Of a stretch of 64,000 nucleotides of DNA, positions 4,448-40,017 are shown in pieces. The stretch comes from a virus (taxonomy: Duplodnaviria > Caudoviricetes). A model generated the notes under the pieces. It was not told where the DNA came from. It made no database searches and worked only from the letters and a program-made list of their open reading frames with translations. Position numbers and translations under genes: made by a program. Position 1 is the first letter of the stretch; every line of letters starts with the position of its first letter. Where the stretch lies: positions 96,001 through 160,000 of the IMG/VR virus record IMGVR_UViG_3300020414_000008, one strand, 5' to 3'.

Positions 4448-5091
4448 TAGACCCACTCAAAAGAGGTGCAAATATAAGTCACAAATATAAATTCGTTTGG
4501 ACCGCACCTGCTAAAGTAGCATCAAGGTCGGTAAAAGATGTTTTTAGAAAGTATTGTAATTTGAATCCTGATTGGCCCTCTGATGAACATACATCTGATT
4601 TTACTCATGTAAACAATTGGCCTGAATTAGCAGGTAAAGATTATATGCATATTGCAAGTATTAGACATCCATATTATAGGTGGTTAAGTTATTGGAAGTA
4701 TGGATATGGTGGTGAACTTCACGAAATGATAGACCCAAAAAATGGACCAATTGAATGTTTACAAAATATGTCACAGGATTGGATAAATGGTTGGGGACTT
4801 TGGAATCTAATAAATAATACATCAAAACAAATAGATTTTCTAATTAGAGCGGAAAATCTTGAAGTATCTTTAAAAAAACTTTGGTTTATCCCTGAAGATG
4901 TTGTGGTACCAACTGTTGGTAAAACTTATACACCACCGATTCCATTCGATGAAGAACACCTCAGACAAGTATGTTATGATAGATTTCTTGATGACTACAT
5001 AAACTTTGGATACATGAAAGATGAAAAACATTATCAGTGGGAACCACCCAATGAGATATCAAATCCACAATTTAAACACAGAAAAATTTAA
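4444..5091 (+). CDS. sulfotransferase family 2-like protein
   Basis: 5'-PSB-like PAKVASRS; 3'-PB-like IRHPYYRWLSYW; ATG at 4444. Confidence 0.65.
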   Translation: MIDPLKRGANISHKYKFVWTAPAKVASRSVKDVFRKYCNLNPDWPSDEHTSDFTHVNNWPELAGKDYMHIASIRHPYYRWLSYWKYGYGGELHEMIDPKNGPIECLQNMSQDWINGWGLWNLINNTSKQIDFLIRAENLEVSLKKLWFIPEDVVVPTVGKTYTPPIPFDEEHLRQVCYDRFLDDYINFGYMKDEKHYQWEPPNEISNPQFKHRKI

Positions 5092-5143
5092 CATAAATTT
5101 AACATTAAAAATTTGGAATTGTCACAAATTATGACGATATTAG
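5087..5143 (+). promoter_or_regulatory. TTTAACA-repeat promoter element, copy 1
   Basis: TTTAACA 5087 and 5098, TTTGG 5112, GATATTAG 5136. Confidence 0.75.
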
Positions 5144-5162
5144 TAGTGTAAGATTAAGAGAT

Positions 5163-5549
5163 ATGAAAAAATCAAAAGTTCAAGAAATAATTAACGAGGT
5201 TCTTCCAAAGATAGAGAACCATTATGGATTCTCAAAGTTCCAAGAGTGTACTCCTTATGTTGAGTTACACAAAAACATTTACGAAAAGTATAGTGGTGAA
5301 GAAGGTTCTGATGGTGAGGAGAGTGGATGTCACGCTGAGTATTGTAGTGATATGAATGAGATTACTGTTTACTATCCTAATATGAAAAGTAAGAAGATGG
5401 TTATTCAGACTTTGATTCACGAATACATTCACTACTTACAATCACCGATTTGGTTCAAAAGATATTACAATATGGGTCACGATTATGTATCTCACCCATA
5501 TGAAAAAGAAGCAATAAGTTACGAAAAAGATTACATAAAGTTTATATAG
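5163..5549 (+). CDS. HExxH zincin-like protein
   Basis: TLIHEYIHYLQ...HPYEKEA. Confidence 0.7.
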   Translation: MKKSKVQEIINEVLPKIENHYGFSKFQECTPYVELHKNIYEKYSGEEGSDGEESGCHAEYCSDMNEITVYYPNMKSKKMVIQTLIHEYIHYLQSPIWFKRYYNMGHDYVSHPYEKEAISYEKDYIKFI

Positions 5550-5917
5550 TGACAGACTTTCAAAAGGTTTCTAAGTACGTCAAGGACGATTTAGGAATAG
5601 ATGTTAAAATGGGTCAGATAACCGCGTTTATGGGACATAAGAACAAAACTATCTTTATTCACCATAATCATAATCTGAAAAAGAACGGTCTTTATACGTT
5701 ACTACACGAAGTTGGACATGCTTATCAAAATAAATATGAAAACTATTTTAAAGAAATTGATGAGGATAAATCCCCAAAAAAGTTTAATATGTACAAATTC
5801 ATAAATGAGGTGAATGCGTGGGACAAAGGATTGGATATTGCAAATAAACTTGGAATAAAAGTGGACGCTAACGAATATAATAAGGTTAAAGAAGAGTCTT
5901 TGTTAACATATTTTTAA
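5549..5917 (+). CDS. HExxH zincin-like protein
   Basis: LLHEVGHA...EVNAWDKG. Confidence 0.7.
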   Translation: MTDFQKVSKYVKDDLGIDVKMGQITAFMGHKNKTIFIHHNHNLKKNGLYTLLHEVGHAYQNKYENYFKEIDEDKSPKKFNMYKFINEVNAWDKGLDIANKLGIKVDANEYNKVKEESLLTYF

Positions 5918-5980
5918 CAAAAATTTAACAATTATTTAACATTAAAAATTTGGAATTGTCAAGAATATTCACGATATTAG
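5902..5980 (+). promoter_or_regulatory. TTTAACA-repeat promoter element, copy 2 (four repeats)
   Basis: (G/T)TTAACA at 5902, 5913, 5924, 5935; TTTGG 5949; GATATTAG 5973. Confidence 0.75.
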
Positions 5981-6020
5981 TAGTGTAAGAATGAGTAATA
6001 AGAGTTTAAAAATAAAAAAT

Positions 6021-6602
6021 ATGAGTAAAAAAATCAAATTAACAATCCAAGGTGTAAACTACGAGTTACCAAAATCAGCAGTGGTATTCAAGGGTTCTTC
6101 TCAGTGGGAAGATGAAACATACATCCAAATGAGAGCAAAGTATTGTTCTTCAATAATCAAACAATATGTTAAGAAAAACTTTCCCTTATTGAATGTATGG
6201 GCAACTTCTTCAGTATACAGTGGTGGTTCTTCTTGTGACATCTACGTTTCTAACCAAGATGGTTCATCAGTAGATAAAGATATTTACGAACAAATAGAGA
6301 ACTTCTCTCAACTGTTCAAAGGTGGTAGTTTCAATGGTATGGAAGATATCTATGAATACAGAACTGACGACCCAACTACTGATAACGGTACTCCAATGAA
6401 GTACTTCCCTTCTTATGTATTTGTAAACAATAAACCAAAGTGGGGTACAGTTGAGTATTGGATGAATGAGTGGAACGAATTGAAAGACCATTACAAAAAC
6501 AAAACAGAGTTCCTACTTAAAAATAAAACTTATATGACCGATAAAGAATACAAAAATATATGTAACGTTTTAAATCCATTAGGTCATCTAAACGGTAAGT
6601 AA
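6021..6602 (+). CDS. LPD29-like (polyvalent-protein domain) protein
   Basis: YSGGSS.D...FNGMEDIYEY pattern. Confidence 0.55.
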   Translation: MSKKIKLTIQGVNYELPKSAVVFKGSSQWEDETYIQMRAKYCSSIIKQYVKKNFPLLNVWATSSVYSGGSSCDIYVSNQDGSSVDKDIYEQIENFSQLFKGGSFNGMEDIYEYRTDDPTTDNGTPMKYFPSYVFVNNKPKWGTVEYWMNEWNELKDHYKNKTEFLLKNKTYMTDKEYKNICNVLNPLGHLNGK

Positions 6603-6623
6603 AAGAAACGCAAGTCTTTTCCT

Positions 6624-6677
6624 AAGGTGGTTAGACTTAAGGGACAAAAACCTGTGAAACAAACCACCTTTTTTTTT
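6624..6677 (+). terminator. intrinsic terminator-like stem with large loop
   Basis: AAGGTGGTT / AACCACCTT followed by a T-run. Confidence 0.55.
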
Positions 6678-6682
6678 AAAAA

Positions 6683-6892
6683 TTGAATATTATGAAAAAT
6701 TATCAAATTGTATTAACATCATTAGTTTCCTTCTTTATTTCGTACACCGTGTTATTCGGAATAGCACAAAAGTACATTCACTTTCAGAGTGAGTTAAATG
6801 AGATAGGAGTTTTTAGTATTTCATCTACGATGGGGTTTGTTGCCTTGTTTGGGTTAGATTGGAAAGGTTTGTATAATTGGTTAAAAAATTAA
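6683..6892 (+). CDS. small two-TM membrane protein
   Basis: Two hydrophobic stretches. Confidence 0.5.
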   Translation: MNIMKNYQIVLTSLVSFFISYTVLFGIAQKYIHFQSELNEIGVFSISSTMGFVALFGLDWKGLYNWLKN

Positions 6893-6896
6893 AATT

Positions 6897-7022
6897 ATGT
6901 ATGTATCAGAATGTTGTGGGTCATCCCCATGGTTAGGAGACATCGACTACGGTAGGTGTTCAGATTGTAAAGAATGTTGTGAATTCTATAATGAAGATGA
7001 AAATGAAGAAATGGCAGTATAG
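6897..7022 (+). CDS. 41-aa Cys-rich protein (not in ORF track)
   Basis: MYVSECCGSSPWLGDIDYGRCSDCKECCEF... Confidence 0.5.
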   Translation: MYVSECCGSSPWLGDIDYGRCSDCKECCEFYNEDENEEMAV

Positions 7023-7191
7023 AGAAATGGGTAGTCGTAATAAGAAGACAGGTAAGTTGTCTTATTACAATGTAACTGTTGTAGATTACCACATATCAGA
7101 TTGTGAGTGTATGGCACGACAGTTCCGACCTTATTCACCGTGTAAACATATGAAAAGACTACACGAAAAATTAGGTCACCTATCAATTTGA
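6979..7191 (+). CDS. SWIM zinc-finger protein
   Basis: CEC...PCKHM = CxC-x-CxH. Confidence 0.7.
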   Translation: MNSIMKMKMKKWQYREMGSRNKKTGKLSYYNVTVVDYHISDCECMARQFRPYSPCKHMKRLHEKLGHLSI

Positions 7192-7234
7192 TTAAATTTA
7201 AAATCATATTTATATAAAATAAAGAAAGTTATAT

Positions 7235-7879
7235 ATGGACGTACAAATTCCTAAAATCATTCATCAGTTATGGTTGGGTGATAATGAAATGCCTGAACAC
7301 TGTCAACAGTTTGTTCAGGAAATGATAGATTTACACCCTGATTATACTCACTATCTTTGGGGTAATGAAGTATTTGAAGAGAAATACAAAGACGATGAAT
7401 ATCTTCAGAACTATACAAAAGACCCCGAGTTATACAAATGGGCATTTATTTGTGATAGGATAAGACTTTTACTACTTAGGGACCACGGTGGAATTTATGT
7501 TGATGTAGACGCAAAACCTGTTCAGTCTTTTAATGTAGTCTTAGATAAATTAAGTCCACAACATACGTTTGTTTCAGGAATGAAACCTTCACAAGAAAAT
7601 AATACATTGGTAGATTGTACAGTTTATATGGCAGCACCAAATTCAAGAATGGTAAATGAGTGTCTATCTACATATGACAATCTATATTGGGCAAATGGTT
7701 GTAGAATGTTTAATGATAAAATCATAGAAACAATGGACACCGATGTTCAATTACTTGGTTACGAATACTTCTATGACCAAAAAATAGGTCCGAAGACAAT
7801 TATACTACACGATATTGAAGATACAAGATTATTGAGTTGGACTGATAATCCTGAAGCGAAAAAACCTCACAATTGGTAG
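7235..7879 (+). CDS. glycosyltransferase family 32 (DXD)
   Basis: IPKIIHQLW, DRIRL..L..HGGIYVDVD. Confidence 0.85.
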   Translation: MDVQIPKIIHQLWLGDNEMPEHCQQFVQEMIDLHPDYTHYLWGNEVFEEKYKDDEYLQNYTKDPELYKWAFICDRIRLLLLRDHGGIYVDVDAKPVQSFNVVLDKLSPQHTFVSGMKPSQENNTLVDCTVYMAAPNSRMVNECLSTYDNLYWANGCRMFNDKIIETMDTDVQLLGYEYFYDQKIGPKTIILHDIEDTRLLSWTDNPEAKKPHNW

Positions 7880-8572: not shown

Positions 8573-9135
8573 AAATATTATTAACAGGACACGGAAGATG
8601 TGGTAGTACTTCTCTTCATTACGGACTTTCAGACGTTATGAATCATAAAATGGTGTTAGAACCATTTAATAGAGAATTATGGAAAAGTTACTACAAAACA
8701 AACCCACCATTTCAAAAAGGTGATGAGATTGGTGAGAATGTTATATTTAAAACATTATCAGGTCACAGTCCTGATTGGATTGAAAAAAACTATAGTAAGT
8801 TTGATAGAACTATAATATTGATGAGGGATAATTTGAGAGATACTGTATTAAGTCATCAGAACGCAATAGTTCACGGATATTTGAATGAGTACAAAGGAAC
8901 TGAAAATATAACCAAAAAATCTTTGGAGTATGTTTTTAACAATTACAAGTGGTTAATAGATTTCCATAAAAAAACTGTTACATCAAGATTGGTTTGGTAT
9001 AATGACATTTACACAACGGATTTTAATAAATCGAAAGACACAATACGGTCATTAGATTTGAACTTATCAGAAGAACAACTAAGTATGTTGTATGAAAAGT
9101 ATTTGAATCCAAGATTTAGATTAAGAAAAAATTAA
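8569..9135 (+). CDS. sulfotransferase-like protein
   Basis: GHGRCGSTSL PAPS-binding-like loop; R.N..D...S. Confidence 0.6.
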   Translation: MKILLTGHGRCGSTSLHYGLSDVMNHKMVLEPFNRELWKSYYKTNPPFQKGDEIGENVIFKTLSGHSPDWIEKNYSKFDRTIILMRDNLRDTVLSHQNAIVHGYLNEYKGTENITKKSLEYVFNNYKWLIDFHKKTVTSRLVWYNDIYTTDFNKSKDTIRSLDLNLSEEQLSMLYEKYLNPRFRLRKN

Positions 9136-9187
9136 CAATAATTTAACATTAGAAATTTGGAAATGTAGGTAAAAATACCTATATTTA
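9131..9187 (+). promoter_or_regulatory. TTTAACA-repeat promoter element, copy 3
   Basis: ATTAACA 9131, TTTAACA 9142, TTTGG 9156, TATATTTA 9180. Confidence 0.7.
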
Positions 9188-9207
9188 CTATGTAAATAAG
9201 TAATGAT

Positions 9208-9561
9208 ATGACAAATAAAACTATTTTCACAGACATCGATGGGACTTTGGTTCACCAAGTGAACTTTGAAGACCTTGACCCGTTTAACAGTGTTGCATTG
9301 CCAGGAGTTGTAGATAAAATGGTTGGTTGGTTCAAAAAAGGATACCACATCGTATTAACTACTGCAAGACCTGAGTCTTTGAGACACGAGACAATTCAAG
9401 AAATGGACATCTTAGGAATACCATTCCATCAATTAGTGATGGGAATCGGTAGAGCCGAAAGAATCCTAATCAACAACAATAGTGATAAAAAACCTAATGA
9501 AGTAAGAGCAGAAGGTATAATTGTTCAGAAAAATGGTGGTTTTAATGACGTAAATCTATAG
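9208..9561 (+). CDS. small HAD-family phosphatase
   Basis: DIDGT, LTTAR. Confidence 0.75.
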   Translation: MTNKTIFTDIDGTLVHQVNFEDLDPFNSVALPGVVDKMVGWFKKGYHIVLTTARPESLRHETIQEMDILGIPFHQLVMGIGRAERILINNNSDKKPNEVRAEGIIVQKNGGFNDVNL

Positions 9562-9563
9562 TT

Positions 9564-9764
9564 ATGATATATTTAAGAGAGGAGTGGATTAACCACCCGA
9601 AACTTAAACGGTTCAGTAGAATCAGTTGTACTGACTCTAAATGTGAGTGTGGTTCCAAGAATACAGCATATCTTTGGGAACACGATTCATGTGTTAGGGG
9701 AAGGATAGACACTGAAGTCTGTTTGGACTGTGACGGTATCAAAAGTTTTGATATCGTAAGATAG
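9564..9764 (+). CDS. small Cys-rich hypothetical protein
   Basis: CECG...CLDC. Confidence 0.45.
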   Translation: MIYLREEWINHPKLKRFSRISCTDSKCECGSKNTAYLWEHDSCVRGRIDTEVCLDCDGIKSFDIVR

Positions 9765-17680: not shown

Positions 17681-18720
17681 AAAACCCTCAAAAAACCCCC
17701 TTTTATCCCACTTTTTACCACTTTATGGTAAACTCTCACCAAATAATTCCTTAATAAAAGAGAGAAATATTTAATTAGAGAAGCTAAGGCTTCCCTACTT
17801 ATCCAATGAAAAGGGGTCGCTAATACACTTTTACCACAATAAACACAAACACTTTCCTATAAAACACCCATGCAACGAGTTTAACAGTAATAAAAGGGTG
17901 CTCTTGTCCGTGTTTCTGCGTTTTCCAATTTTTTTGCTATAGCGAAACCTTTTGCGCATTGTTAATAACCTGTTGATAACTTTTTTTTAGGTCGTTTTGT
18001 CAGTCTGAGTACCCTTGTAACACGGGTGTAGAGGTGTTACAAACGTAACAACAGAGGGGCGCCGGGGGTTCTGTAGAGGTATTTGTAACACATACCCCGA
18101 AAATGAGTAGTCGCTGAGTAGTGACAGGGTGTCATGTTGATAACTTTGTTGATAAAAAAGTGTTTATTTCCTTGTTTTTTTCATTTATTTTTCGTATATT
18201 AGTGGGGGGCATTGACCTACTTTTCACCACGGATGCGCAATAACCCGACATATATGGGTAAAATTTAACAATTATTTAACATTGGCGATTTGGAAATGAA
18301 CGCAGAATTCCTTATCTTTACTATGTAAAGAGAGAGATATATGGGATAACTGTGGTGGAAACCGCGAAGTGAAGTAAAAATAAAATAGGTCAAAACAGCA
18401 AGTACTATACGCAAGTAGGTATATAGAGAGAGAATAGAGTAGTATAGGTATAGGTAGGTACAGCGCATAGATTAACCTGAAACAACCCCGAACCCCGTAA
18501 GTCGTTATAGGCGATGAAAGACACTCGCGCAGGGGGTGGGGGTATTTTCACGGAAACCAAGCGCAGCAGCAGGCATGAACCGCCTGTAGTCCGTCTTGCT
18601 GTCGAGGTCGGCAAAATGACCTTGGGGAAAGTCCCCTCTAAGGTCTGATTTACAGAGGGGCGCTAAAATTCATTTACCTCATTATGGGTATGGATATTGT
18701 TTAACTATTAAATTTAATTA
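17681..18720. other. long non-coding region, candidate origin/terminus
   Basis: No credible ORF; DnaA-box-like pairs, inverted repeats, GC-rich hairpins. Confidence 0.5.
18264..18320 (+). promoter_or_regulatory. TTTAACA-repeat promoter element, copy 4
   Basis: TTTAACA 18264 and 18275, TTTGG 18289, TATCTTTA 18313. Confidence 0.7.
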
Positions 18721-18721
18721 T

Positions 18722-18904
18722 ATGCTGAAAGGTATCGGAGTGACTTGGACACCTAAATCCAAGAAAGTAAAGTTTGTAAAACAGAATGGTCAAGTGGTTA
18801 ACAGGGATGAATTAGTTGAAGCTCTTAATTACTGTCAATGGAGATTTGGTTATAGACATAAGGATTATTCTCAGGATGGTAGTACTCTTACTGTAGGTAT
18901 GTAG
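18722..18904 (+). CDS. hypothetical protein
   Basis: First ORF after the non-coding region; AT-rich leader. Confidence 0.5.
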   Translation: MLKGIGVTWTPKSKKVKFVKQNGQVVNRDELVEALNYCQWRFGYRHKDYSQDGSTLTVGM

Positions 18905-18939: not shown

Positions 18940-19863
18940 ATGAGGTATTTTTATTTTAGTTTAGTTTTGTTTATTTCCCTGCTTTTTTCAGGGTGTGGTA
19001 GTCAGTGGTATGTGAGTACTACAAATCATGACCCTATGTATGACAGGTATATAGAGGTAGACAGTTCAGTTAAGATAGATACTATTAATTCTTTATTTCA
19101 TCTCAAGAGAAAACTCCGAACAGACTTCTCTTTCAGATGGGACTTCGCTCAGTATGCGATGACAAGACCCTATTCGTGGTATTTCAACAATCCAAGACTC
19201 GATGGTATATGGAGACCTTACAACAGATTTGATGTATGGTTTAACTCCCATCAGTTTTGGTACGATTGGGCATGGAACTATCCTTGGTATGGATACGACC
19301 ATCCATGGTGGGTTAGAAATCATAGATACTATAATTGGTATTATCCACATCCACAAGGTTGGTATGGTTGGAATCACTATCAGTACAGTTGGTACAATGA
19401 ACCTCTGATAGCAAGTAATAACAATTATTCTTTTGTAGTTGGTAGAAGGGGAAGTAGGTATAATGATTTTCTTAATGGTAACTCTAATATAGAACAAGAT
19501 ACTAATCGAAGAAGAGGTAACAGAGTATATCCTAATAAACCTAATAACAACAATACTATTAACAATGTTATCAGATGGAGTAATGATAATAATATTCGTA
19601 TTAATGTCAACTCAAATCCAAACCGTGTAGATAGTAATAATAATGTTGTTGTCCCAATCAAACCAAATAACAACATCAACAATTGGAATTCCAAACCAAG
19701 AGTACCAAACAACAACTTCAATAACGGAAGACCACCTGTTAATAACTTTAACAGTAACCCACCTGTTAACATCAGAAGTGGTGGTAACGTAGGTGGTAGT
19801 AGTAGAGGAAGTTCGTCAGGCGGTAGTTCTAGCTCATCAGTAGGTAGAAGAGGTGGAAACTAA
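18940..19863 (+). CDS. lipoprotein with W/Y-rich core and N/G/S-rich tail
   Basis: Signal peptide with lipobox LFSG-C19. Confidence 0.7.
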   Translation: MRYFYFSLVLFISLLFSGCGSQWYVSTTNHDPMYDRYIEVDSSVKIDTINSLFHLKRKLRTDFSFRWDFAQYAMTRPYSWYFNNPRLDGIWRPYNRFDVWFNSHQFWYDWAWNYPWYGYDHPWWVRNHRYYNWYYPHPQGWYGWNHYQYSWYNEPLIASNNNYSFVVGRRGSRYNDFLNGNSNIEQDTNRRRGNRVYPNKPNNNNTINNVIRWSNDNNIRINVNSNPNRVDSNNNVVVPIKPNNNINNWNSKPRVPNNNFNNGRPPVNNFNSNPPVNIRSGGNVGGSSRGSSSGGSSSSSVGRRGGN

Positions 19864-19885: not shown

Positions 19886-19942
19886 TTTAACATAAATTTA
19901 ACATTAAACATTTGGAAAAGTCATTTACTTTCACTATCTTTA
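19886..19942 (+). promoter_or_regulatory. TTTAACA-repeat promoter element, copy 5
   Basis: TTTAACA 19886 and 19897, TTTGG 19911, TATCTTTA 19935. Confidence 0.75.
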
Positions 19943-19965
19943 CTATGTAATAATGATTAATAGTA

Positions 19966-26057: not shown

Positions 26058-27533
26058 GTGACTAAAAAGATAAACAAAATATTTGTACTATCCGTAAAAG
26101 GAAACTACAATGATATTGGAAATCGATTAGACGAATTAGACCTATCTTACGAGGTACCCTATGAAGTTGTCGATGGTATCATTGGTAGAGAAACCGATAT
26201 GGAATACTCCGAGTACCCATGGACATTAACTGAAATGAATCCATGGAACGAGTGGTGGGAACGTCCAATGTTAGATGGTGAAGTTGGATGTGCATTAGGT
26301 CACTACAATATGTGGAAACAGGCGTATGAAGAGGGACATGAAGTATGTATGTTCTTAGAAGAAGACTTCAAAGGTGTCAAGTCACTATTCGACCTCGGTA
26401 TGATTCCCAACGATATTGATGGTTTATATTTAGGTAGAAGACGAGTACCAAATCACGAATGGTTATATGATGGACCTGAACAAAACTATAACGACAATTG
26501 GGTACATCCACAATACAGTTACAACGCTCACGCATACATACTAACAAGAGAAGGATTAAGAAAACTATTGTATGATTATGATTTCATAAACAATCTAATG
26601 CCACTCGATGAGTTTTTGATATCAACAATAAATCTACATCCACGAAAAGATATCAGGGAGTTTATCAAACCAACACTAAAGTTTATTGCTCCACCAACCA
26701 ATGAAGACAATTGGATAAACCAAACATCCGTTGATATCGAATCGGGTAATGAATATGGTACCTCACTAACTGAGGATATAACACGATTAGAACGAAGTAT
26801 TAAATTTGATATGGTTTATGTCATTACATTAGATACAAGTAACGAGAACGTAGAAAGATTAATCAACAGAGTAAAAGAATTAGGTTTACCAAATGATGTT
26901 CCAATAAGAATATGGAGAGGGACAAATGGTAAGGAAGAGTTTGATACGATTGAAAAGAGAGAACAAATGGGTATCAAGTTCTATGATGATTGGAAGATAG
27001 AAAGTGGTAACAATTGGTGGACAAGACCTGTAACTGTTGGTGAAGCAGGTGGTGTACATTCTCATATTAGAATATGGGAAGACGTAGTTGAAAGAGAATA
27101 TAATAACGTATTAATATTAGAAGATGATTTTAATCCAACACAAAGGTTTCATTGGAATACCTTTGATGAATTAAAAGATTACGATTGGGATTTAGTATTC
27201 CTATCAAGACTTTTGATTGAAGGAAAGGATACTAATGTAGGATTAGAGAATTGGGTCAAACCAAGTTATTCATATCAAACCCATTGTTATGTTTTAAACT
27301 ATGAAGGAGCAAAGAAATTAGTAGAAACAAATGTACCAACACTAAAACAAAATATAATAGTATCAGATGAGTTCTTACCTGCCACATACACAACTCATCC
27401 AAGAGAAGACATTAGGAAAATGTTTATTCAAAACATGAATGTCTTAGCTCTTAAATCAAACCCTGTTATCCAAGACAGGTATGAAGCGGCAAACAATTCA
27501 CAGACATCCCCAATCGAGGGAATAGATTTCTAA
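26058..27533 (+). CDS. glycosyltransferase family 25, two tandem domains
   Basis: GEVGCALGH..W..LEED and GEAGGVHSH..W..LEDD, each with a DEFL motif. Confidence 0.85.
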   Translation: MTKKINKIFVLSVKGNYNDIGNRLDELDLSYEVPYEVVDGIIGRETDMEYSEYPWTLTEMNPWNEWWERPMLDGEVGCALGHYNMWKQAYEEGHEVCMFLEEDFKGVKSLFDLGMIPNDIDGLYLGRRRVPNHEWLYDGPEQNYNDNWVHPQYSYNAHAYILTREGLRKLLYDYDFINNLMPLDEFLISTINLHPRKDIREFIKPTLKFIAPPTNEDNWINQTSVDIESGNEYGTSLTEDITRLERSIKFDMVYVITLDTSNENVERLINRVKELGLPNDVPIRIWRGTNGKEEFDTIEKREQMGIKFYDDWKIESGNNWWTRPVTVGEAGGVHSHIRIWEDVVEREYNNVLILEDDFNPTQRFHWNTFDELKDYDWDLVFLSRLLIEGKDTNVGLENWVKPSYSYQTHCYVLNYEGAKKLVETNVPTLKQNIIVSDEFLPATYTTHPREDIRKMFIQNMNVLALKSNPVIQDRYEAANNSQTSPIEGIDF

Positions 27534-27538
27534 GGAAT

Positions 27539-27612
27539 GGACCCGTAGCTCAGTTGGATAGAGCATCTGCCTTCTAAGCAGACGGTCACAGGTTCGAATC
27601 CTGTCGGGTTCA
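27539..27612 (+). tRNA. tRNA-Arg(TCT)
   Basis: Acceptor GGACCCG/CGGGTTC, anticodon loop CTTCTAA, GTTCGAATC; no CCA encoded. Confidence 0.95.
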
Positions 27613-27671
27613 CAATTTATTAAATATATTTTAATATTTATATAATAGTTAACTAAATAAAAACAATTGTT

Positions 27672-31940: not shown

Positions 31941-32285
31941 ATGAGAATGAATATAACTATCGTACCCTACAAGTTGCCCGAATCCGTACCGACTCCAAAA
32001 GAGGAGTGTGGCTGGATTGCTCTACACGATAATAAAGCGATAGGTTGGAACTCATTACTATTTTTATCCCACAATACAGTAAAGTTTGCTAATGCATTTG
32101 TAGAAGAAGAATATAGAGGTAATGGAATCTACAGAATGTTATGGGACGCCAGATGGAAATGGTGTCAAGAAAACCTTAAAGGATATGATGTAATAACGTA
32201 CTGTCTACCAACAACACTTAACTTCTACAGAGAAAAAGGGTGGTCCGAAGGACATACATCTACATTAATGTCGTCAAAAATTTAA
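31941..32285 (+). CDS. GNAT acetyltransferase
   Basis: FVEEEYRGNGIY; FYREKGW. Confidence 0.8.
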   Translation: MRMNITIVPYKLPESVPTPKEECGWIALHDNKAIGWNSLLFLSHNTVKFANAFVEEEYRGNGIYRMLWDARWKWCQENLKGYDVITYCLPTTLNFYREKGWSEGHTSTLMSSKI

Positions 32286-32337
32286 CAAAACTTTAACATT
32301 TAAAGTTTGGATATTAACGTTTTTATGCTTATCTTTA
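32281..32337 (+). promoter_or_regulatory. TTTAACA-repeat promoter element, copy 6
   Basis: TTTAACA 32281 and 32292, TTTGG 32306, TATCTTTA 32330. Confidence 0.75.
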
Positions 32338-32342
32338 CTATG

Positions 32343-32437
32343 TAGTTGTGGGGACTCTAAAGTCCCTCGTCATTGAATCCAATGGACCTGACGTTAAACG
32401 GAGTAACCGATACCCCCCTCGGGGGGTGGTGAAACTA
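32343..32437 (+). ncRNA. candidate structured leader RNA (multi-hairpin junction)
   Basis: Closing TAGTT/AACTA plus hairpins GGGACT/AGTCCC, CGTCA/TGACG, CGG/CCG, TACCCCC/GGGGGTG. Confidence 0.5.
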
Positions 32438-32447: not shown

Positions 32448-32615
32448 ATGAGTAAGAAAAAAGAATCATATCAAGACGAACTTGACTTCAACGGGGGTTG
32501 GACCCGTGGTGAAGCGAGTCATCACATTGGTAAGAAGACAACTGAACAAACTCACAAGTCTAAAAAGACTTATTCTCGAAAGGAGAAACATAAGAAAAAT
32601 TTAACAATTTCTTAA
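32448..32615 (+). CDS. 55-aa ArfA/BrfA-like basic protein (not in ORF track)
   Basis: AAGGAG upstream; C-terminal HKSKKTYSRKEKHK. Confidence 0.55.
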   Translation: MSKKKESYQDELDFNGGWTRGEASHHIGKKTTEQTHKSKKTYSRKEKHKKNLTIS

Positions 32616-32656
32616 CATTAGAAATTTGGAAATAAGTAAAAATTATATTATCTTTA
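32600..32656 (+). promoter_or_regulatory. TTTAACA-repeat promoter element, copy 7
   Basis: TTTAACA 32600, CTTAACA 32611, TTTGG 32625, TATCTTTA 32649. Confidence 0.75.
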
Positions 32657-32673
32657 TATCGTAAGATTAAAAA

Positions 32674-34800
32674 ATGGGAAATATGTATAAATCAAATCTA
32701 AATTATTCATCCTTCTGGCTCGACAAGTCTATTTGGGACGAGGATGATGACCAATCAAAAGTAGAAAAGAAATCAAATGACTTAATGAAACTGATGTCCT
32801 ACAAAAGGAGTATCGGTAACTTCGTAAGTATTGTAACAGGTGAGTCTATTCCTGTGACATTCGATGGTAGGGGTAGTGACTCTTACACCGATGGTAGAGA
32901 GGTTGTTATCTCTGCAAAATTAGACGATAAAGAATTTGACCCCGTGGTTGGTCTCGCACTACACGAGGGTTCTCACATTAAACTTACAGATTTTGATTCC
33001 CTTAAAAGTCTTATGGACCATGATGTATTTCCCGTGTCTATGCAAGATTACATCAAAAAGTTCCAAGACAGTTCAGGAACATTCAAAGGTTATTGGTATG
33101 ATACTTCAATGGGTAATGTAATAAAAGGTAAATTAAAAGACCTTCTTAACTATGTAGAAGATAGGAGAATTGACAACTTTGTTTATTCATCCGCGCCTGG
33201 TTATAGAGGTTACTACGAGTCGATGTACAAAAAGTATTTCCACTCTAATGTAGTAGACAAGGGTCTTAAGTCTTCAGAACACAGAGACGAGACGTGGGAG
33301 TCTTATATGTTTAGATTGATTAATATCACTAACAAAAACAGAGACCTCAACGCTCTTAAAGGGTTAAAAAAGATTTGGAATCTTCTTGACCTTAGAAACA
33401 TTTCAAGACTAAAAAATACAGATGACTCTCTTGAGTTAGCAGGTAAGATTTTTATGGTCATCCAAAAGAATGTTAATGAAGATGTGGACCAAACACCACA
33501 ACCACAAAAAGGTAATGGTGGTGAAGATGGTGATACTGATGGTAAGTCCGATGTATGTGATTCAGAATCTAAATCAACAGGTGATGGTAAACCAATGACA
33601 GGTAAGGGTCAAGGTAAAGGTACCGACTCTAACGGTGATGGTAAGGACGATGGTTCTACTGACAAGAAGGGTTCTATGTCAAGTGGTCAATCAAACAAGA
33701 ATGGGGCAGGTGGTCAACACCAACCACTGAATGACAGACAAAAAAAGATGTTAGAGAACGCTATTGAAAAACAAAAGAAGTTTCAGAATGGTGATATCTC
33801 TAAAAAGAAAATATCTAAAGCAGATAAAAAGAAGATTGATACTCTTGACCAAGCGGATATCAAGACAGAGGTTACAGGTAAAGGTCTTGAACAAGGTTAT
33901 TGGAGAAACCAATCACAAGGTGTTCAAACTTATGTTATCAACAACATGACTCAACAGTTAATTGAGTCGGGTCTGATTGACCACTTAGGTACTTGGAGAA
34001 CTGATTCAAACAATGTTGCAGTTAACAAGGGTATTATGTTAGGTACTCAGTTAGGTAAGAAACTTAAAACAAGAAACGAAGAGAGAGTTCTTCAGACTCC
34101 AAGAATGAAGAGTGGTAAGTTGAACGGTAGAATGTTACACGAGATTGGTTTCGGTAACTTTGATATCTTTGACCAAATCAACATCAATACCGCGACACCA
34201 TCGTTGTTACATATATCGATTGACGCAAGTTCTTCAATGAATGGTGACAAGTGGTACAACACTCAGACCGCCGCAGTAGCAATCGCTAAAGCAGCATCAA
34301 TGACAGAGAATATGAATGTTGTTATATCTTACAGAGGTATTTACTACAATAGAGAAAGTAGACAATGTCAACCTTTGATGTTGGTTGCATACGATTCGAG
34401 AAAAGATAAGTTCCAAAAGATACAAAACTTATTCAAGTTTATTTCACCAAGTGGTACAACACCCGAGGGTCTTTGTTTTGAAGCAATACTAAAAGAGTTA
34501 ACTAAGACCAAGAACGGTGAAGAGAGTTATCTAATCAACTTCTCAGATGGATGGCCTGGTTTTGATAACAGAGAAATTAGTTACGGTGGTCAATACGCAG
34601 TAGACCATACAGCAGAACAAGTCAAGAAAATCAGACAATCAGGTGTATCAGTTCTTTCTTACTTTATCTCTGATGGATACTTCGGAAACAGTAAGACTCA
34701 GTTTGAGAAAATGTATGGGAAGGACTCAGAGTTCATTGATGTAAACAATGTGACTCAGTTAGCTAAGACATTAAATAAAAAGTTTGAAGTTAAAATTTAA
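32674..34800 (+). CDS. HExxH + VWA domain protein (CobT-like)
   Basis: LHEGSH, NYVEDRRID, low-complexity linker, MIDAS DASSSM, GTTP, SDG. Confidence 0.8.
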   Translation: MGNMYKSNLNYSSFWLDKSIWDEDDDQSKVEKKSNDLMKLMSYKRSIGNFVSIVTGESIPVTFDGRGSDSYTDGREVVISAKLDDKEFDPVVGLALHEGSHIKLTDFDSLKSLMDHDVFPVSMQDYIKKFQDSSGTFKGYWYDTSMGNVIKGKLKDLLNYVEDRRIDNFVYSSAPGYRGYYESMYKKYFHSNVVDKGLKSSEHRDETWESYMFRLINITNKNRDLNALKGLKKIWNLLDLRNISRLKNTDDSLELAGKIFMVIQKNVNEDVDQTPQPQKGNGGEDGDTDGKSDVCDSESKSTGDGKPMTGKGQGKGTDSNGDGKDDGSTDKKGSMSSGQSNKNGAGGQHQPLNDRQKKMLENAIEKQKKFQNGDISKKKISKADKKKIDTLDQADIKTEVTGKGLEQGYWRNQSQGVQTYVINNMTQQLIESGLIDHLGTWRTDSNNVAVNKGIMLGTQLGKKLKTRNEERVLQTPRMKSGKLNGRMLHEIGFGNFDIFDQININTATPSLLHISIDASSSMNGDKWYNTQTAAVAIAKAASMTENMNVVISYRGIYYNRESRQCQPLMLVAYDSRKDKFQKIQNLFKFISPSGTTPEGLCFEAILKELTKTKNGEESYLINFSDGWPGFDNREISYGGQYAVDHTAEQVKKIRQSGVSVLSYFISDGYFGNSKTQFEKMYGKDSEFIDVNNVTQLAKTLNKKFEVKI

Positions 34801-34852
34801 CAATAATTTAACATTAGAAATTTGGAATTGTGAACCTAATTCACTATCTTTA
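34796..34852 (+). promoter_or_regulatory. TTTAACA-repeat promoter element, copy 8
   Basis: TTTAACA 34796 and 34807, TTTGG 34821, TATCTTTA 34845. Confidence 0.75.
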
Positions 34853-34897
34853 GAGAGTAATATTAATAATGAGAAATAATAATTTAAAACAAAGTCT

Positions 34898-36160
34898 ATG
34901 AAAGCACAAAAATCAGTTTTTGGAAAAGTAGTTCAGATAGATGACCTCTATTTGTTCGAAGATTCGGCAGGTGTTAAGTTCAACATCCCCGAGTTCAATG
35001 AAGAGGGTACCAACCTCTATAAAAGGGTAAAGTCAGCGTGTAATAATCCTGCGAAGTGGGGTTTCAAAATCAGAGTCAGAGGTAGACTTTCTGATGGTGA
35101 GATTGTTTACAACAGAGTTCCTGCTTCAACCGTTGAACAGAAACCCGAACCTGTTGGTAACTTCAACAAACCTAACGGTGGTCTGATGTCTATGTTATGG
35201 GAACCAACACCAAAGGGTGTCGCTTCTAAAGAAATGACTTCAGATGTCCTTAACTTTATTCATAACGAAGTCGATGGTTTGAAACCAAAGATGTTGTTCA
35301 TGAAATCTCTAAAGTGGAAGTATCTAATCAGAAACATCCTTAGAGGTAAAAATATTATGATGACAGGTCCTGCTGGTTGTGGTAAAACTATGGCAGCGAA
35401 AGCAGCGGCTAATTCCCTTGAAGGTTACAACACCTTCATTATTAACTTGGGTGCAACTCAAGACCCGAGAACAACCCTTATCGGAAATACTCAGTTCGAT
35501 ACTAAGAAGGGAACAGTGTTCAACTCTTCACCATTTGTGAAAGCAATCCAAACTCCAAACACGGTGGTGGTCCTTGATGAGTTGACGAGAGCACACCCTG
35601 AAGCTCACAACATCCTAATGACAGTTCTTGACCAAGGTCAAAGATACTTGAGATTGGATGAAGCCGCTGACGCTCCTGTTATCAAAGTTGCAGATGGAGT
35701 ATCCTTCATCGCATCAGCAAACATCGGTAATGAATATACTGCGACGAGAGCACTCGATAGAGCTATTCTTGACAGATTTACTGTCATTGAAATGGACACC
35801 TTGACTAAGGACGAAGAGTCTGAGTTACTTCAGATGATGTATCCTTCAGTTGATAAGGATGTTATTTCTTCTGTCGCTGAAATTACTTCGATGACAAGAA
35901 ATGACGTAATGTCAGAGACTCCTAAGTTGACTAACTCATTGTCAACAAGAACCGCAGTTGAGATTGGTTCTCTACTTTATGATGGTTTTGAATTAGGTGA
36001 AGCAGCTGAGATTACAATCTATCCACTGTTCGACCAAAGTGGTGGTGCTCAATCTGAGAGAGTGTTCATGAAACAATACATTCAGAAGTTCTTAGGTGAG
36101 ACTCCACAAGACGAAGACTTGTTTAATGTAGAATCAGAAGACGTTAGTAATCCTTTCTAA
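34898..36160 (+). CDS. MoxR/CbbQ/CobS-like AAA+ ATPase
   Basis: GPAGCGKT, VVLDELTR, SAN, LDRAILDRF, STR. Confidence 0.9.
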   Translation: MKAQKSVFGKVVQIDDLYLFEDSAGVKFNIPEFNEEGTNLYKRVKSACNNPAKWGFKIRVRGRLSDGEIVYNRVPASTVEQKPEPVGNFNKPNGGLMSMLWEPTPKGVASKEMTSDVLNFIHNEVDGLKPKMLFMKSLKWKYLIRNILRGKNIMMTGPAGCGKTMAAKAAANSLEGYNTFIINLGATQDPRTTLIGNTQFDTKKGTVFNSSPFVKAIQTPNTVVVLDELTRAHPEAHNILMTVLDQGQRYLRLDEAADAPVIKVADGVSFIASANIGNEYTATRALDRAILDRFTVIEMDTLTKDEESELLQMMYPSVDKDVISSVAEITSMTRNDVMSETPKLTNSLSTRTAVEIGSLLYDGFELGEAAEITIYPLFDQSGGAQSERVFMKQYIQKFLGETPQDEDLFNVESEDVSNPF

Positions 36161-36171
36161 GGGTTACTAAC
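36143..36171 (+). terminator. 13-bp hairpin over the AAA gene stop
   Basis: GTTAGTAATCCTT-TCT-AAGGGTTACTAAC; no clear U-run. Confidence 0.4.
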
Positions 36172-36187
36172 CTCTAATATTAATACT

Positions 36188-36625
36188 ATGGCATACAACA
36201 AGTATAGATGGTGGACAAACGGTAAAAGAAAAACTCTTTCTGTAAAATCTCATCTTTGGGATAGGATACAGAATGGTGACTTTGAATTATCTCATTATTA
36301 CACAGAGGAGAAGGCTGCAAGAAAGCAGTCTTCTGACCTCTACAGTGAGATAATGAGTAAGTGTCCCGATGGTGGTGATTATTGGGGATATGAATATGAA
36401 GCAAGACAAAAGACCTACCTAAAGAATGTTAGAGCAAACAAGTTAGCAGAAGAAGGACACAGAGACGATATTAAGATATTAAACAATTTTAAAAAAGAAT
36501 TAGAAAAACATTTTGGTTTTTGTCTATGGGATAAACTCATGGATGAGAAACCTATGAGTACCGAAGATGTCTACGAATACTACTGTATTGAGAAGATGTT
36601 TAGAAACGGTTTGGATGTTAAGTAA
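36188..36625 (+). CDS. hypothetical protein
   Basis: ORF track, typical codon usage. Confidence 0.55.
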   Translation: MAYNKYRWWTNGKRKTLSVKSHLWDRIQNGDFELSHYYTEEKAARKQSSDLYSEIMSKCPDGGDYWGYEYEARQKTYLKNVRANKLAEEGHRDDIKILNNFKKELEKHFGFCLWDKLMDEKPMSTEDVYEYYCIEKMFRNGLDVK

Positions 36626-36646
36626 AAATTTTGTATATTTAAAGAT

Positions 36647-36997
36647 ATGAACCTAAAGTACGACCCCGAGAATCCATTAACGGATAAACAACTTGACGAA
36701 ATAGCAGCATACGACTTTGACTTGTTTTTAGAATACTTAGATTCAAAAACAGAATACCTAAAACAGTTTAGTAGACCATTGGGTAAGTATCATTGTAAGA
36801 GGTTCGCAGCGTTAGACGCTAAAATGAGTGGTAAAGAAATTACTACTAAACTAATTAAAGACGCAGAAAAGATGGGACAGGTTGGTGACGACATTGTTCA
36901 ACAAAATATTATAGACAAGATGAATGAGAAAGGTTTAGAAGAACCTGACATTATGGTTGATAATCATAAGACTCATAGGTCACAATGGTTTGATTAA
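36647..36997 (+). CDS. hypothetical protein
   Basis: Follows promoter TTTGG 36610 / TATATTTA 36634. Confidence 0.55.
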   Translation: MNLKYDPENPLTDKQLDEIAAYDFDLFLEYLDSKTEYLKQFSRPLGKYHCKRFAALDAKMSGKEITTKLIKDAEKMGQVGDDIVQQNIIDKMNEKGLEEPDIMVDNHKTHRSQWFD

Positions 36998-37174
36998 TTA
37001 TGGGATTTAACAAAACACATTTACCGAATATAGAAGACCTTAAATCGATGGTTAAAGAATGGGGAGTTAGTGCAGTATTAAATCGATACAACGGTCCAAA
37101 GGTTGATGTCCTAATTGGGGACGTAGACGCAATGGACTACTTAGATAGTTTGGTAGAAACTAAAGAAAAATAAA

Positions 37175-37525
37175 ATGAATTGGAATCGAGAAGATTTAAA
37201 CGGCTTAGTGATAGACATAATCTCTGAATTAAAGGGAGTTGGATTTTCGGGTGTTGAAGATTGGGATACATTCGGTGACATCTTAAGATACAAACTTAAA
37301 AAATCAGGTGAGTTTGATATGTTATCAGAAGTGGTTGTGGAAACCTTCAGAGATTACACAAAATTTGAAACAGATATGGCTCTTATGAACTTATCTGACA
37401 AAGGATTGATTCGTATGTATGTTGACGAGAACGGAAAACTTGCATATGGTCCAACAGAAAAAGGGGTTAAATTGTCCACCCTTATTAATGAAGAAAGGGA
37501 CAAAAATAAAAATCAAAATAAATAA
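37175..37525 (+). CDS. hypothetical protein, possible winged helix
   Basis: L..L.DKGLI...Y..TEKG. Confidence 0.45.
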   Translation: MNWNREDLNGLVIDIISELKGVGFSGVEDWDTFGDILRYKLKKSGEFDMLSEVVVETFRDYTKFETDMALMNLSDKGLIRMYVDENGKLAYGPTEKGVKLSTLINEERDKNKNQNK

Positions 37526-37528
37526 ATT

Positions 37529-37729
37529 ATGAAGTATTACATTGCAAAAGTAAAAGTACATCACACGGATGACAAGGGCAGAGTAAAAAAGTTAACTGAA
37601 CAATATGTGGTTAACGCAGTGTCTGTAACTGACGCTGAAACAAAAGTTGTAAAAGACTTTGAGAATTCAGGAATTGAATTTGAAGTAGGGTCAGTAATAG
37701 AGACCAAAATCATAAAGGTAATTAAATAA
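37529..37729 (+). CDS. DUF4494-like protein
   Basis: YIAKVK...G.VKK.TEQYVVNAVSVTDAE. Confidence 0.7.
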   Translation: MKYYIAKVKVHHTDDKGRVKKLTEQYVVNAVSVTDAETKVVKDFENSGIEFEVGSVIETKIIKVIK

Positions 37730-39296
37730 TGATTTTTCAAAAAGGGGACAATGTAATTGTAAAGTTAAACGGGACTTACAGAGTAGGTTCCGTTTTACAC
37801 CGAACAAGATTAAAAAGAGGTCTTGTATATAAGGTAAGACTTGAGAACGGTAATACAGTTGACGAATGTTCTGTAAATAAAGAATTGACGAGTTGTCACA
37901 TCCACAGAGGATTGACAAAATCACTAAATAAAAAAGATGGACGAGAAACAGAAAAGGAAGTTTAAAACATTCCAAAGAAAAGTTAGGAAGAGATATCCTA
38001 AAGCAAAGATTCAAAGAAACACAGATGGGTTATTTTATATATCAAGTGGAATCGGTACAGTAGTAGGTGAGGAGTTATTCATTCCACCACAAACTAAGGT
38101 GTATGACGCATGGTATTGGGCAAGTAGGTCTTGTCAAATAGAACAAAACTTTAACAGAACACATCCAATGAAACACGATATGGCTGTTGATGAGAAAAGA
38201 TTCGATAGAGTTTCTCGAAGAAATAGGAAGAAAAAGTAGTTTTATTAATTTCAAAAAACTATTTATGTAATATAACCAAAACTATATAAATCAGTTTATG
38301 AAAAAATATAACAAAAAGCAAAGAGGTGGTTACGTTAACCAATCTTTCGGAATTCCAAAAGACGTAGCGAAAAAGAATGATAAGAGGATGGGTAACTATT
38401 GGTCTTCTATCGACTTTCAAATGCACGAACAAAAACAAACTGAGTATCCAACAGGTCCATCTAAAATAGGATACTTACAAGTTGGTAATCATGACATCGA
38501 ACTAACAATGGCAGAATGTAACAGGATAGCACATACGTTGGTAGAGGCGATTGATTTAGCAAAAAAGAAGTACAAACTTAATATGTAATTTGTGCCACCC
38601 AAGGGAATTTTCAACATATTTGATGAAGACGCATTAGAAAATAATACGGACTTAGAATTGTATCTAAAGAGTGTCCGTGATATTCTTGTGGAAAAAAAAG
38701 ACCCGTATTATACTTTGTGTAAAAGTAAAATCAAAGAGTTGATTTCAGAACCCGATAAAATGGTTACAAAAGAATACAAAGAAAAAATGATTCCAAGACT
38801 AACAATGGTCAAGGATAATTTTGGTTCTGAGTATTTAAAAACATTGATTGAGATATTCTCAGAGGTTGTTCTTCACGATAAACGATTTATATCTAAACAA
38901 GGTTTATTATTCTTGAACAAGGTTTGGAAAGATAAGATTTAAGATATGTATAGTAAAGGAGATATCATGGAACATTGGGATGAAGCGGAATATAATTACT
39001 TCATGAGTTTAGATGATATGACTAAAGTATATTATCTACATGACTATCTCTATGGTGAGTTTGAAGAGGATGTCTTTGAAGATGTTGACATTCCTGAACA
39101 AACTCCTGAACACAGACCGATACAGGTTTTAATAGACTCAGAGAATCTTACCGTTATTTGTGATAACCCAACACTACTCAAGAAGACAGTCGCATTATTT
39201 GTAATGGATGGATTTCTTTTAGAGAAACAGGTTGAAAGAGCAGACGCAGTAATTTACAAGATAATAGCAGTTGGGGACCCAATGTCAGTAAACTGA
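37729..39296 (+). other. run of five hypothetical genes
   Basis: Contiguous 78-116 aa ORFs. Confidence 0.5.
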
Positions 39297-39367
39297 CACA
39301 TTGTCACATCAAATTAATTTAAAACTAACAAAATGTCATACATTTCCAATTGGTACAGATTTGGTAC
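39283..39367 (+). promoter_or_regulatory. TGACA-N3-TGTCA operator cluster upstream of hsp20
   Basis: TGTCA 39283, TGACA-cat-TGTCA 39294-39306, TAACA-aaa-TGTCA 39326-39338, TTGGTAC twice. Confidence 0.5.
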
Positions 39368-39379
39368 TAATAGTAGTAT

Positions 39380-39745
39380 ATGTTTAATAATTTAAAAAGG
39401 AAAAAAATGACATTAAGAAATTTTGATAAGATTTTCGACTCATACTTAGATTGGGATATGAGTGGTTATGGTTCAGATACTACAGCACGAGTTGAAGACG
39501 ATGTGTTGTTAATGGACTTCGAAGTGCCTGGATTGGGTAACAAAGACGTTCAGGTAAATGTAGAAGATAGAAATCTACACATTAAAGCAGAAAAAGACCA
39601 TCGTAAGTTCGAAAGAAAGTACAGGGTTCATGATTCTTATGATTTGAATCAAACTTCTGCTGTTTGTAAAGATGGTATCTTAACAATCTCTATTCCTAAG
39701 TACGAGGATAGAAAGGCTAAAAGTATTACAGTAAAAGTTAAATAA
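39380..39745 (+). CDS. Hsp20/alpha-crystallin small heat-shock protein
   Basis: EVPGL...DV.V.VE...L.I; F.R; DGILTISIPK; I.V tail (start may be 39407). Confidence 0.9.
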   Translation: MFNNLKRKKMTLRNFDKIFDSYLDWDMSGYGSDTTARVEDDVLLMDFEVPGLGNKDVQVNVEDRNLHIKAEKDHRKFERKYRVHDSYDLNQTSAVCKDGILTISIPKYEDRKAKSITVKVK

Positions 39746-39960
39746 AGTTAAATGTTTTCTAACTCGTGGTTTAGGTACGAAAAACTTAATTACAACAACA
39801 AGTTATATTTAATCATACGGAAGATTGCGATTGACCGAAGACCAATAGTTAACGTTTGGAAAGAACACTTAAACTGTGACACTGTACTGAAGGGAAATGA
39901 CGGTTTTTTCTATTTTCTCCAAGAAGTTTCGGATGTAGAGTGGAAAGAGGTATAGGAAAA

Positions 39961-40017
39961 TTTAACATAAATTTAACATTGGGGACTTGGAAAAGTCCCC
40001 TTTTTTTATTATCTTTA
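39961..40017 (+). promoter_or_regulatory. TTTAACA-repeat promoter element, copy 9
   Basis: TTTAACA 39961 and 39972, CTTGG 39986, TATCTTTA 40010. Confidence 0.7.
39981..40007 (+). terminator. intrinsic terminator embedded in promoter copy 9
   Basis: GGGGACTT-GGAA-AAGTCCCC-T7. Confidence 0.75.

Follow-up and report, generated by a model that had tools for sequence, protein, structure and literature searches.

A promoter element built on two head-to-tail TTTAACA boxes recurs in one fixed geometry in a marine T4-like phage, known from the IMG/VR record IMGVR_UViG_3300020414_000008 (180,769 bp, about 94% complete), of which bases 96,001 to 160,000 form the stretch of 64,000 nucleotides that we call the window. 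The element is shared by phages that have almost no proteins in common, and the same boxes lie before pstS and next to phoBR in Flavobacteriales. The reading that we favour, with modest confidence, is that they are Pho boxes for the PhoB protein of the host; the phage would probably tie in this way a part of its early expression to the host regulator of phosphate starvation. An earlier note on this DNA (hereafter the original prediction) had guessed at an activator that was either a host PhoP-like protein or a phage factor. The boxes found at pstS and phoBR make the former the best-supported candidate.

Geometry and core of the element

We name class A the promoters that carry tandem TTTAACA boxes, and class B those that have no boxes. 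Class A follows the layout TTTAACA-N4-TTTAACA-N7-TTTGG-N19-TAnnTTT-N4-GTAA, with strictly fixed spacing, and the aligned consensus of its copies reads AAAA-TTTAACA-N4-TTTAACA-TTAGAAA-TTTGG-N19-TATCTTTA-ctat-GTAA. The nine window sites listed in the original prediction are all present where it placed them, on the + strand. The whole-genome scan that it called for brings the number of full copies to 11, all on the + strand, with the addition of genome 47796 and 71148; there is also one single-box copy, at genome 48633 (+ strand). The invariant spacing that it described is borne out over the whole genome, three single-base deviations aside: ATTAACA (9131), CTTAACA (32611) and CTTGG (39986). Allowing two mismatches at most, the box pair occurs 13 times in the window, against 3.7 ± 1.8 in shuffled sequences (maximum 9). 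Across the 180,769-bp genome it is met 13 times forward, never in reverse and never with the reversed control pattern. TTAACA pairs at a distance of 11 bp give the same count (13 on the + strand, 0 on the - strand). The distance from TTAACA to TTTGG is 13 nucleotides (nt) in 11 cases, the second box being always 7 nt from TTTGG. Nearly all genes of the window are on the + strand. Having at least two direct repeats of 6-7 bp at a 10-11-bp period, the element possesses the repeat structure of a Pho box.

Downstream of the boxes, all 11 copies show TTTG-N20-TATCTTTA or the variant TATATTAG, one base off the consensus at -5 or -6. Judged by its letters, this core is a Bacteroidota primary-sigma promoter with -33 and -7 boxes, TTTG and TAnnTTTG being separated as they should be in such promoters (19-21 nt). 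In Flavobacterium johnsoniae the -7 box extends from T-12 to G-5, and transcription starts 4-5 nt downstream (PMC6847099). Because this numbering fits, the predicted start is the conserved G of GTAA, which would place the heptads at about -61 to -55 and -50 to -44. GTAA is conserved at this position in the phage genome and in 113 distinct IMG/VR copies among the matches listed. These were retrieved with the upstream half only (boxes and TTTGG, without -7 box or GTAA) as a query, and they keep both the -7 box and GTAA at the same distances. When both spacings were set free, giving 104 combinations, N4/N7 yielded 22 unique copies, 20 of them with a -7 box, and N3/N7 yielded 12, all with a -7 box; the remaining 100-odd geometries had at most five matches each, nearly all without it. 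N3/N7 is a second promoter-linked geometry, with heptads 10 bp apart, found at 12 distinct promoters of other phages. The proposal that the copies are Bacteroidota-type promoters with an upstream activator site is supported.

The predicted promoters and hairpins of the window are the following, in window coordinates (ORF, open reading frame; MFE, minimum free energy):

5087..5152, + strand: class-A promoter; boxes at 5087 and 5098, TTTGG at 5112, -7 box GATATTAG at 5136, then the GTAA start region; drives ORF 5163-5549
5902..5989, + strand: class-A promoter with four in-phase boxes (5902, 5913, 5924, 5935); TTTGG at 5949, -7 box at 5973; drives ORF 5991-6602 (weak LPD29 match, under the Pfam cut-off)
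9131..9196, + strand: class-A promoter, first box ATTAACA; drives the HAD-like phosphatase ORF 9208-9561
9161..9186, + strand: 11-bp hairpin within the spacer of copy 9131, the 3' arm entering the -7 box; no T-run; MFE -10.8 kcal/mol, z -5.5
18264..18329, + strand: class-A promoter; then about 390 nt without ORF, then ORFs 18722-18904 and 18940-19863
19886..19951, + strand: class-A promoter; drives a series of small ORFs from 19966
32281..32346, + strand: class-A promoter; precedes the small variable ORF 32448-32615
32600..32665, + strand: class-A promoter, second box CTTAACA; drives a 708-aa VWA-like protein (32674-34800)
34796..34861, + strand: class-A promoter; drives an AAA+ MoxR/CbbQ-like ATPase (34898-36160); position kept in most relatives
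39961..40026, + strand: class-A promoter, CTTGG for TTTGG; drives a 40-aa ORF and a PNKP-type HAD phosphatase (40161-40619)
39981..40007, + strand: terminator-like hairpin GGGGACTT/AAGTCCCC followed by T7; -33 box in the 5' arm, T-run filling the promoter spacer; MFE -14.6 kcal/mol, z -5.8
404..435, + strand: class-B promoter, box-free comparator, TTTGGA-N-TTTTGTATATTTA; further class-B promoters at 6848 (variant), 10010, 21865, 28742, 36610, 40862, 43167 and 62194

The four in-phase boxes from 5902 to 5935 had been noticed before and are confirmed. The same is true of the observation that the TAA of a repeat is the stop codon of the upstream gene at 5091, 5917, 9135, 32285, 32615 and 34800, where the ORF ends were verified; one of these overlaps is kept in relatives. 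The element alone closes two of the three reading frames, so that overlap in five or six of nine copies is not clearly more than what tight gene packing would give.

Outside the window, the copy at genome 71148 precedes a PD-(D/E)XK nuclease gene (genome 71210-72151). Among class-A products those with an identity are this nuclease, the two HAD phosphatases, the VWA-like protein, of which the assignment (32674-34800) is a weak match under the Pfam cut-off, and the AAA+ ATPase; the rest are small or have no assignment. Two phosphatases and a nuclease, among mostly unknown products, are what might connect the genes served with phosphate supply. The ORF-free stretch behind the 18264 promoter (18325-18720), richer in G+C, has no match in Rfam at E values up to 1, and its folding z-score is -0.68; a structured RNA is not supported there. 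The 18264 promoter itself is kept in a relative (L055).

Hairpins are a feature of some copies only. Folding of the sequence that follows the second box, up to and including the -7 box, was compared with that of shuffled sequences: three of the 11 copies (genome 71148, window 9131 and window 39961) have a significant hairpin, with z between -5.4 and -5.8, and the other eight have none beyond shuffles. Stems of conserved pairing had been announced for several copies; TAGGTA/TACCTA (9131) and GGGGACTT/AAGTCCCC (39961) stand, while GTCA/TGAC, AAAGT/ACTTT and GTGAA/TTCAC are at chance level. The terminator role given to the elements survives likewise in part: a T-run follows the hairpin at window 39961 and genome 71148, the 9131 hairpin lacks one, and eight copies have no significant hairpin. 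Among the 113 IMG/VR copies mentioned above, strong hairpins are found in 13-14%, against 0.3-1.3% of shuffles, and a T-run follows in 13 of 16. There the -33 TTTGG sits within the 5' arm of a G+C-rich hairpin, the T-run making the spacer before the -7 box. The stems differ and the pairing is kept, as in GGTTTGG/CCAAACC, AGTTTGG/CCAAACT and CCTTTGG/CCAAAGG (L011, L030, L040, L048, L081, L083, L113). A terminator nested within a promoter is a real design, that of a minority.

The genome also holds 15 class-B promoters, TTTGGA-N-TTTTGTATATTAG, without heptads; the 'about eight' promoters lacking the repeats that had been reckoned in the window are eight clean ones and the variant at 6848. Class B serves DNA-metabolism genes, those of thymidylate synthase, a primase and an endonuclease, and also a gene that is protease-like. 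A-tracts lie upstream of eight of the 15, as against 13% of random 30-mers, and resemble the regions upstream of host rRNA promoters. Another motif, TATTTATA, is found 31 times on the + strand of the whole genome and four times on the - strand.

The same boxes in other phages and in host genomes

The element is present in at least 100 IMG/VR stretches. Among its carriers are phages with genomes of 170-290 kb in which the T4-type capsid gene is present, and also records without that gene: G016 (59 kb, 83% complete), G029 and G008 have three, one and three copies, respectively, no T4 capsid gene, and just zero to two weak protein matches with the present phage. Among cultured phages, Tenacibaculum phage Larrie (ON950054.1, 77.5 kb), which encodes an RNA polymerase of its own, bears the boxes at about 16 promoters. 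They lie in its early region (11-20 kb of the record), on both strands, and include nearly every early promoter. Chryseobacterium phage MA9V-1 has a single copy. A BLAST search of cultured phages with an 80-nt element returned no significant match, and two weak ones that point to Larrie and MA9V-1; megablast with 20 kb of the window returned none. Phages that share almost no proteins carry the same element, which implies that the boxes are read by a host factor rather than by a lineage-specific phage protein. A 39-kb contig labelled as from an uncultured gammaproteobacterial metagenome-assembled genome (CAZGHY010000003.1; L122, L134, L135) has four copies with -7 boxes of the Bacteroidota type, besides small ORFs like those of phages; probably it comes from a Bacteroidota phage and was misbinned.

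In cells, the full composite is rare: 44 places in 185,579 species genomes, many of them in Bacteroidota, and the genes downstream of these 44 places have no common theme. With one mismatch, its frequency in 101 Flavobacteriaceae is, on inspection, seemingly little above the reversed-pattern control. Of 301 Flavobacteriaceae genomes, 87 contain boxes with a -7 box 18-46 nt downstream; the reversed control gives two matches. In a phylum-wide sample of 251 genomes boxes with a -7 box were at background.

Few Flavobacteriaceae carry pstS (12 of 121 genomes; it is missing from the five complete genomes examined), and the analysis of this gene was therefore widened to the order Flavobacteriales. 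In 40 regions of 250 nt upstream of pstS from this order there are 18 T[AT]ACA pairs at period 11, distributed over 16 regions, at most four at any other period from 6 to 30, and none on the opposite strand. Whole pstS loci (306 kb, both strands counted) give 30 pairs at period 11 and no more than 10 at any other. Twenty regions upstream of PhoX-like genes contain one pair; this set, made mostly of partial matches that may not be true PhoX, is mainly a negative control. Several of the pairs at pstS are exact phage-type boxes, including the trailing TTA, among them those of L392 (TTTAACACAAATTTAACATTA) and L398 (TTTAACAATTACTTAACATTA). In L388 a gene for an OmpR-type response regulator, with that of a histidine kinase behind it, diverges from pstS, which is the usual arrangement of phoB-phoR; the 156 nt that separate the regulator gene from pstS hold the boxes. 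Boxes are thus found where Pho boxes are expected, before the host pstS (16 of 40 regions) and next to phoBR.

The commonest host form of the element, with a gap of 31 nt between boxes and -7 box as in the phage, is the promoter of a gene for a secreted peptide of 45 residues (MKTKKYLIAIAIFGG...), followed by a gene for a membrane protein of 180 residues. In the one genome annotated, the pair is located beside porX and tsaE; a second genome has it at that same place. This promoter, with perfect tandem TTTAACA boxes, is conserved in about a third of Flavobacteriaceae genomes (loci L212, L216, L222, L225, L228-L231, L234, L235, L239-L242 and L247-L250). In other genera the boxes are 10 bp, or one helical turn, closer, the distance to the -7 box being 31 or 21 nt according to genus. 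These peptide promoters lack a -33 box, as activator-dependent promoters typically do, and no regulator gene was found in the neighbourhood of the operon (porX, tsaE, lpxC). The operon may be a new member of the Pho regulon. Other conserved host sites of the boxes are a DUF4442 gene, the region between rpsF and a divergent gene and, once, rpoD.

What may read the boxes

The boxes are attributed to PhoB because of homology with every Pho regulon studied. The E. coli Pho box is made of direct repeats of 7 bp separated by 4 bp, and the repeats bound by Bacillus subtilis PhoP read TT(A/T/C)ACA. The phage element resembles both, with its head-to-tail repeats at a 10-11-bp period, a half-site that is nearly the Bacillus one, and the occurrence of the boxes, in the order of the hosts, before pstS and beside phoBR. 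It differs from the E. coli box in its placement: between the end of the last phage box and the -7 box there are about 31 nt, which puts the phage boxes farther upstream by roughly two helical turns. According to this view the host primary-sigma RNA polymerase would read each copy, through the -33 TTTGG and the -7 box that begins 20 nt after TTTG. In a phosphate-starved host phosphorylated PhoB, an OmpR-family protein, would bind the heptads from one side of the helix, in the form of a head-to-tail dimer. Bound PhoB would help the polymerase, with more transcription of the eleven phage units as a result: the PD-(D/E)XK nuclease, the two HAD-type phosphatases, the VWA protein, the AAA+ ATPase, many small ORFs and one non-coding stretch. 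Some basal expression without PhoB would probably come from the core, which is near the consensus. In the minority of copies that have one, the hairpin in the spacer would also act as a terminator for the upstream gene. That PhoB binds, that it activates rather than represses, and that phosphate matters for the outcome are what we infer from these likenesses.

The closest published case is the control of a few cyanophage genes by the host PhoBR (pstS of P-SSM2, and genes of S-PM2d shown by gel shift; PMC10976474). It too is about marine T4-like phages that have sites for the host phosphate regulator before their own genes, so that their transcription would be governed by the phosphate status of the host. 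The differences are several: the host belongs to another phylum, and the box is TTTAACA-N4-TTTAACA and not PyTTAAPyPy(T/A). Near-perfect boxes are set here at a single, invariable distance from a -33/-7 core that is intact, before eleven units of which none is pstS or phoA, and the element is also found in unrelated phages that are not T4-like. Its role as a Pho box is predicted from sequence.

Several facts weigh against PhoB. Classic Pho boxes replace the -35 box, whereas in the phage the -33 box is retained and perfect, and the heptads precede it. Most of the perfect host copies are away from known phosphate genes, at the peptide operon, the DUF4442 gene, the LytTR gene discussed below and rpoD. 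The phage genome has no pstS, its phoH has no boxes, and no pstS or phoA stands behind boxes. Nearly all early promoters of Larrie are boxed, though this phage was presumably isolated and grown in ordinary medium, rich in phosphate. A strict need for PhoB agrees less well with this pattern than does a factor that is constitutively available, or a basal activity that is strong, and, Larrie presumably growing when phosphate is replete, the boxes would not be strictly required. Finally, a study of cyanophages cautions that many Pho boxes predicted from sequence do not bind when tested (PMC10976474).

The boxes might instead be read by a different host activator, one with affinity for direct repeats. 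The best candidate is a conserved orphan LytTR regulator of Flavobacteriaceae, with a signal that would perhaps be a peptide or cell density and not phosphate; we regard this as unlikely, if the most serious of the alternatives. The gene divergent from rpsF, between priA and rpsF, encodes a 231-aa protein with Response_reg and LytTR domains (for example L209:724-1416, - strand), which is 88-100% identical across many genera (loci L428-L457). In 21 of 30 loci the tandem boxes begin 83-86 nt away from the start codon of the regulator, the distance to rpsF being variable, and this fixed position looks like autoregulation. Furthermore, the best conserved host target, a secreted peptide gene with a membrane protein gene, is of the kind that LytTR proteins typically control. 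Read on the opposite strand, the box TGTTAAA shares with the AgrA and Pln boxes the GTTAA that these contain. Known LytTR sites, however, are direct repeats of 9-10 bp every 21-22 bp, and the period here is 11. Of the 12 small Flavobacteriales genomes with pstS boxes, 11 are devoid of any LytTR regulator. Tenacibaculum crassostreae has only distant paralogues of it, and the Tenacibaculum phage Larrie uses the boxes heavily. Boxes before the LytTR gene could simply mean that PhoB also controls this gene, which is the simpler reading.

Somewhat less probable again is a constitutive role, the heptads being a booster of the UP type for the C-terminal domains of the polymerase alpha subunits and class A simply the early promoters of greatest strength, unconnected with the physiology of the host. 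Their position (-61 to -44), an A/T-rich setting and two subsites one helical turn apart are in keeping with this, as are the use of boxes by many unrelated phages and at nearly all early promoters of Larrie. The likeness to the UP elements of strong promoters is in the position upstream of -35/-33 and in a likely stimulating effect. Against it, the rRNA promoters (11 upstream regions of five Flavobacteriaceae genomes) have no TTAACA boxes at the promoter; they show long upstream A-tracts, a TTG and TATATTTG, which speaks against a generic UP element as the first choice. Eight of the 15 class-B promoters of the phage bear A-tracts instead of boxes, and in hosts the boxes are confined to few specific conserved promoters, those of pstS and phoBR included. 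The heptad is specific, and its invariant C suggests base-specific reading.

The original prediction had gone further and made the elements the limits of accessory gene cassettes and the joints at which these recombine. This would make their main role similar to that of the promoter-stem-loop (PeSL) of T4-type coliphages (PMC2839356, PMC4122927), promoter-terminator repeats acting as short homologies that move accessory cassettes. We find this very improbable, even though the phage is T4-like, two or three copies have a strong hairpin and the IMG/VR copies show an excess of hairpins. In addition, the ORF between the 32281 and 32600 copies is swapped for unrelated ORFs in relatives, and a block made of the phosphatase gene and a promoter is present or absent just after the 39961 copy. 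However, in nine relatives (50-92% protein identity) the elements keep their places before conserved genes, those of the VWA protein, the AAA+ ATPase and the endonuclease. The 32600 copy is kept in place in most relatives examined, being a full element in L162-L165 and L167, and the search pattern finds no match in L166 and L170. The synteny comparison that had been proposed shows no excess of breakpoints. The closest relative, G001, aligns over 45 kb in one line with six indels, one of which abuts a class-A element (it starts at 32344, right after the 32281 copy) where about 0.6 would be expected; one or two are at class-B promoters. In a relative of 74% identity about three of 14 gene-content differences, by our own count, touch an element, about two being expected from the proportion of junctions with an element. 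Turnover beside elements is no greater than at other gene junctions. Nor are the copies unusually alike: they are 23-67% identical outside the boxes, no recent duplication or gene conversion is seen among them, and the genes downstream are not paralogues. Separately, the tRNA-Arg gene of the window (27533-27615) is replaced in G001 by a 337-bp stretch with a single-box/class-B promoter.

What is common to PeSL and the present element is a set of composite repeats in a T4-like genome, strong host-type promoters with an AT-rich upstream part and, in some copies, a terminator hairpin. PeSL have a stem-loop in each element, whereas most copies here (eight of 11) have no significant hairpin. Where there is a hairpin, it does not stand beside the promoter but is nested in the spacer, the stem including the -33 box, and indel breakpoints are not in excess. 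As hairpins are few, positions conserved and breakpoints near expectation, this is resemblance and not membership.

Least credible of all is an activator encoded by the phage that would define a temporal (middle) class of genes, as MotA does in T4: one genome does have two promoter classes with different upstream modules and a class-A -7 box slightly off consensus, but unrelated carriers share hardly a protein, no Trans_reg_C (OmpR-type) or LytTR DNA-binding domain was found in five phage records, and conserved promoters of host chromosomes use the same boxes, which makes the phage factor of the original prediction unlikely.

Consequences for phages and hosts in the ocean

We come back to PhoB as the favoured reader of the boxes. 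A search of the open literature gave no description of this motif, nor of a Pho box or Pho regulon in Flavobacteriales. If true, this would be the first defined Pho box for the order, with the secreted-peptide operon, the DUF4442 gene and the conserved LytTR regulator as new members of the regulon. The element is sharp enough to help in defining that regulon, to be used as a host-range marker for uncultured phages, assigning them hosts in Flavobacteriales, and to offer a candidate inducible promoter part for Flavobacteria. Tenacibaculum phage Larrie and its host make up a cultured pair that carries the element, so that the question is testable at once.

Phosphate limits growth in much of the surface ocean, where Flavobacteriia are major degraders of algal matter. 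It is conceivable, though we would not count on it, that in several unrelated lineages of marine Flavobacteriia phages much of the transcription by host polymerase is conditional on host PhoB, with boxes closer to consensus than any host site. They would have in this way an early programme of nucleases, phosphatases and unknown genes that senses phosphate, and phage DNA, as it replicates, might even draw PhoB off the host regulon. If this is true, the outcome of infection, the recycling of nucleotides and lysis would depend on phosphate, a dependence so far known only for a few genes of cyanophages.

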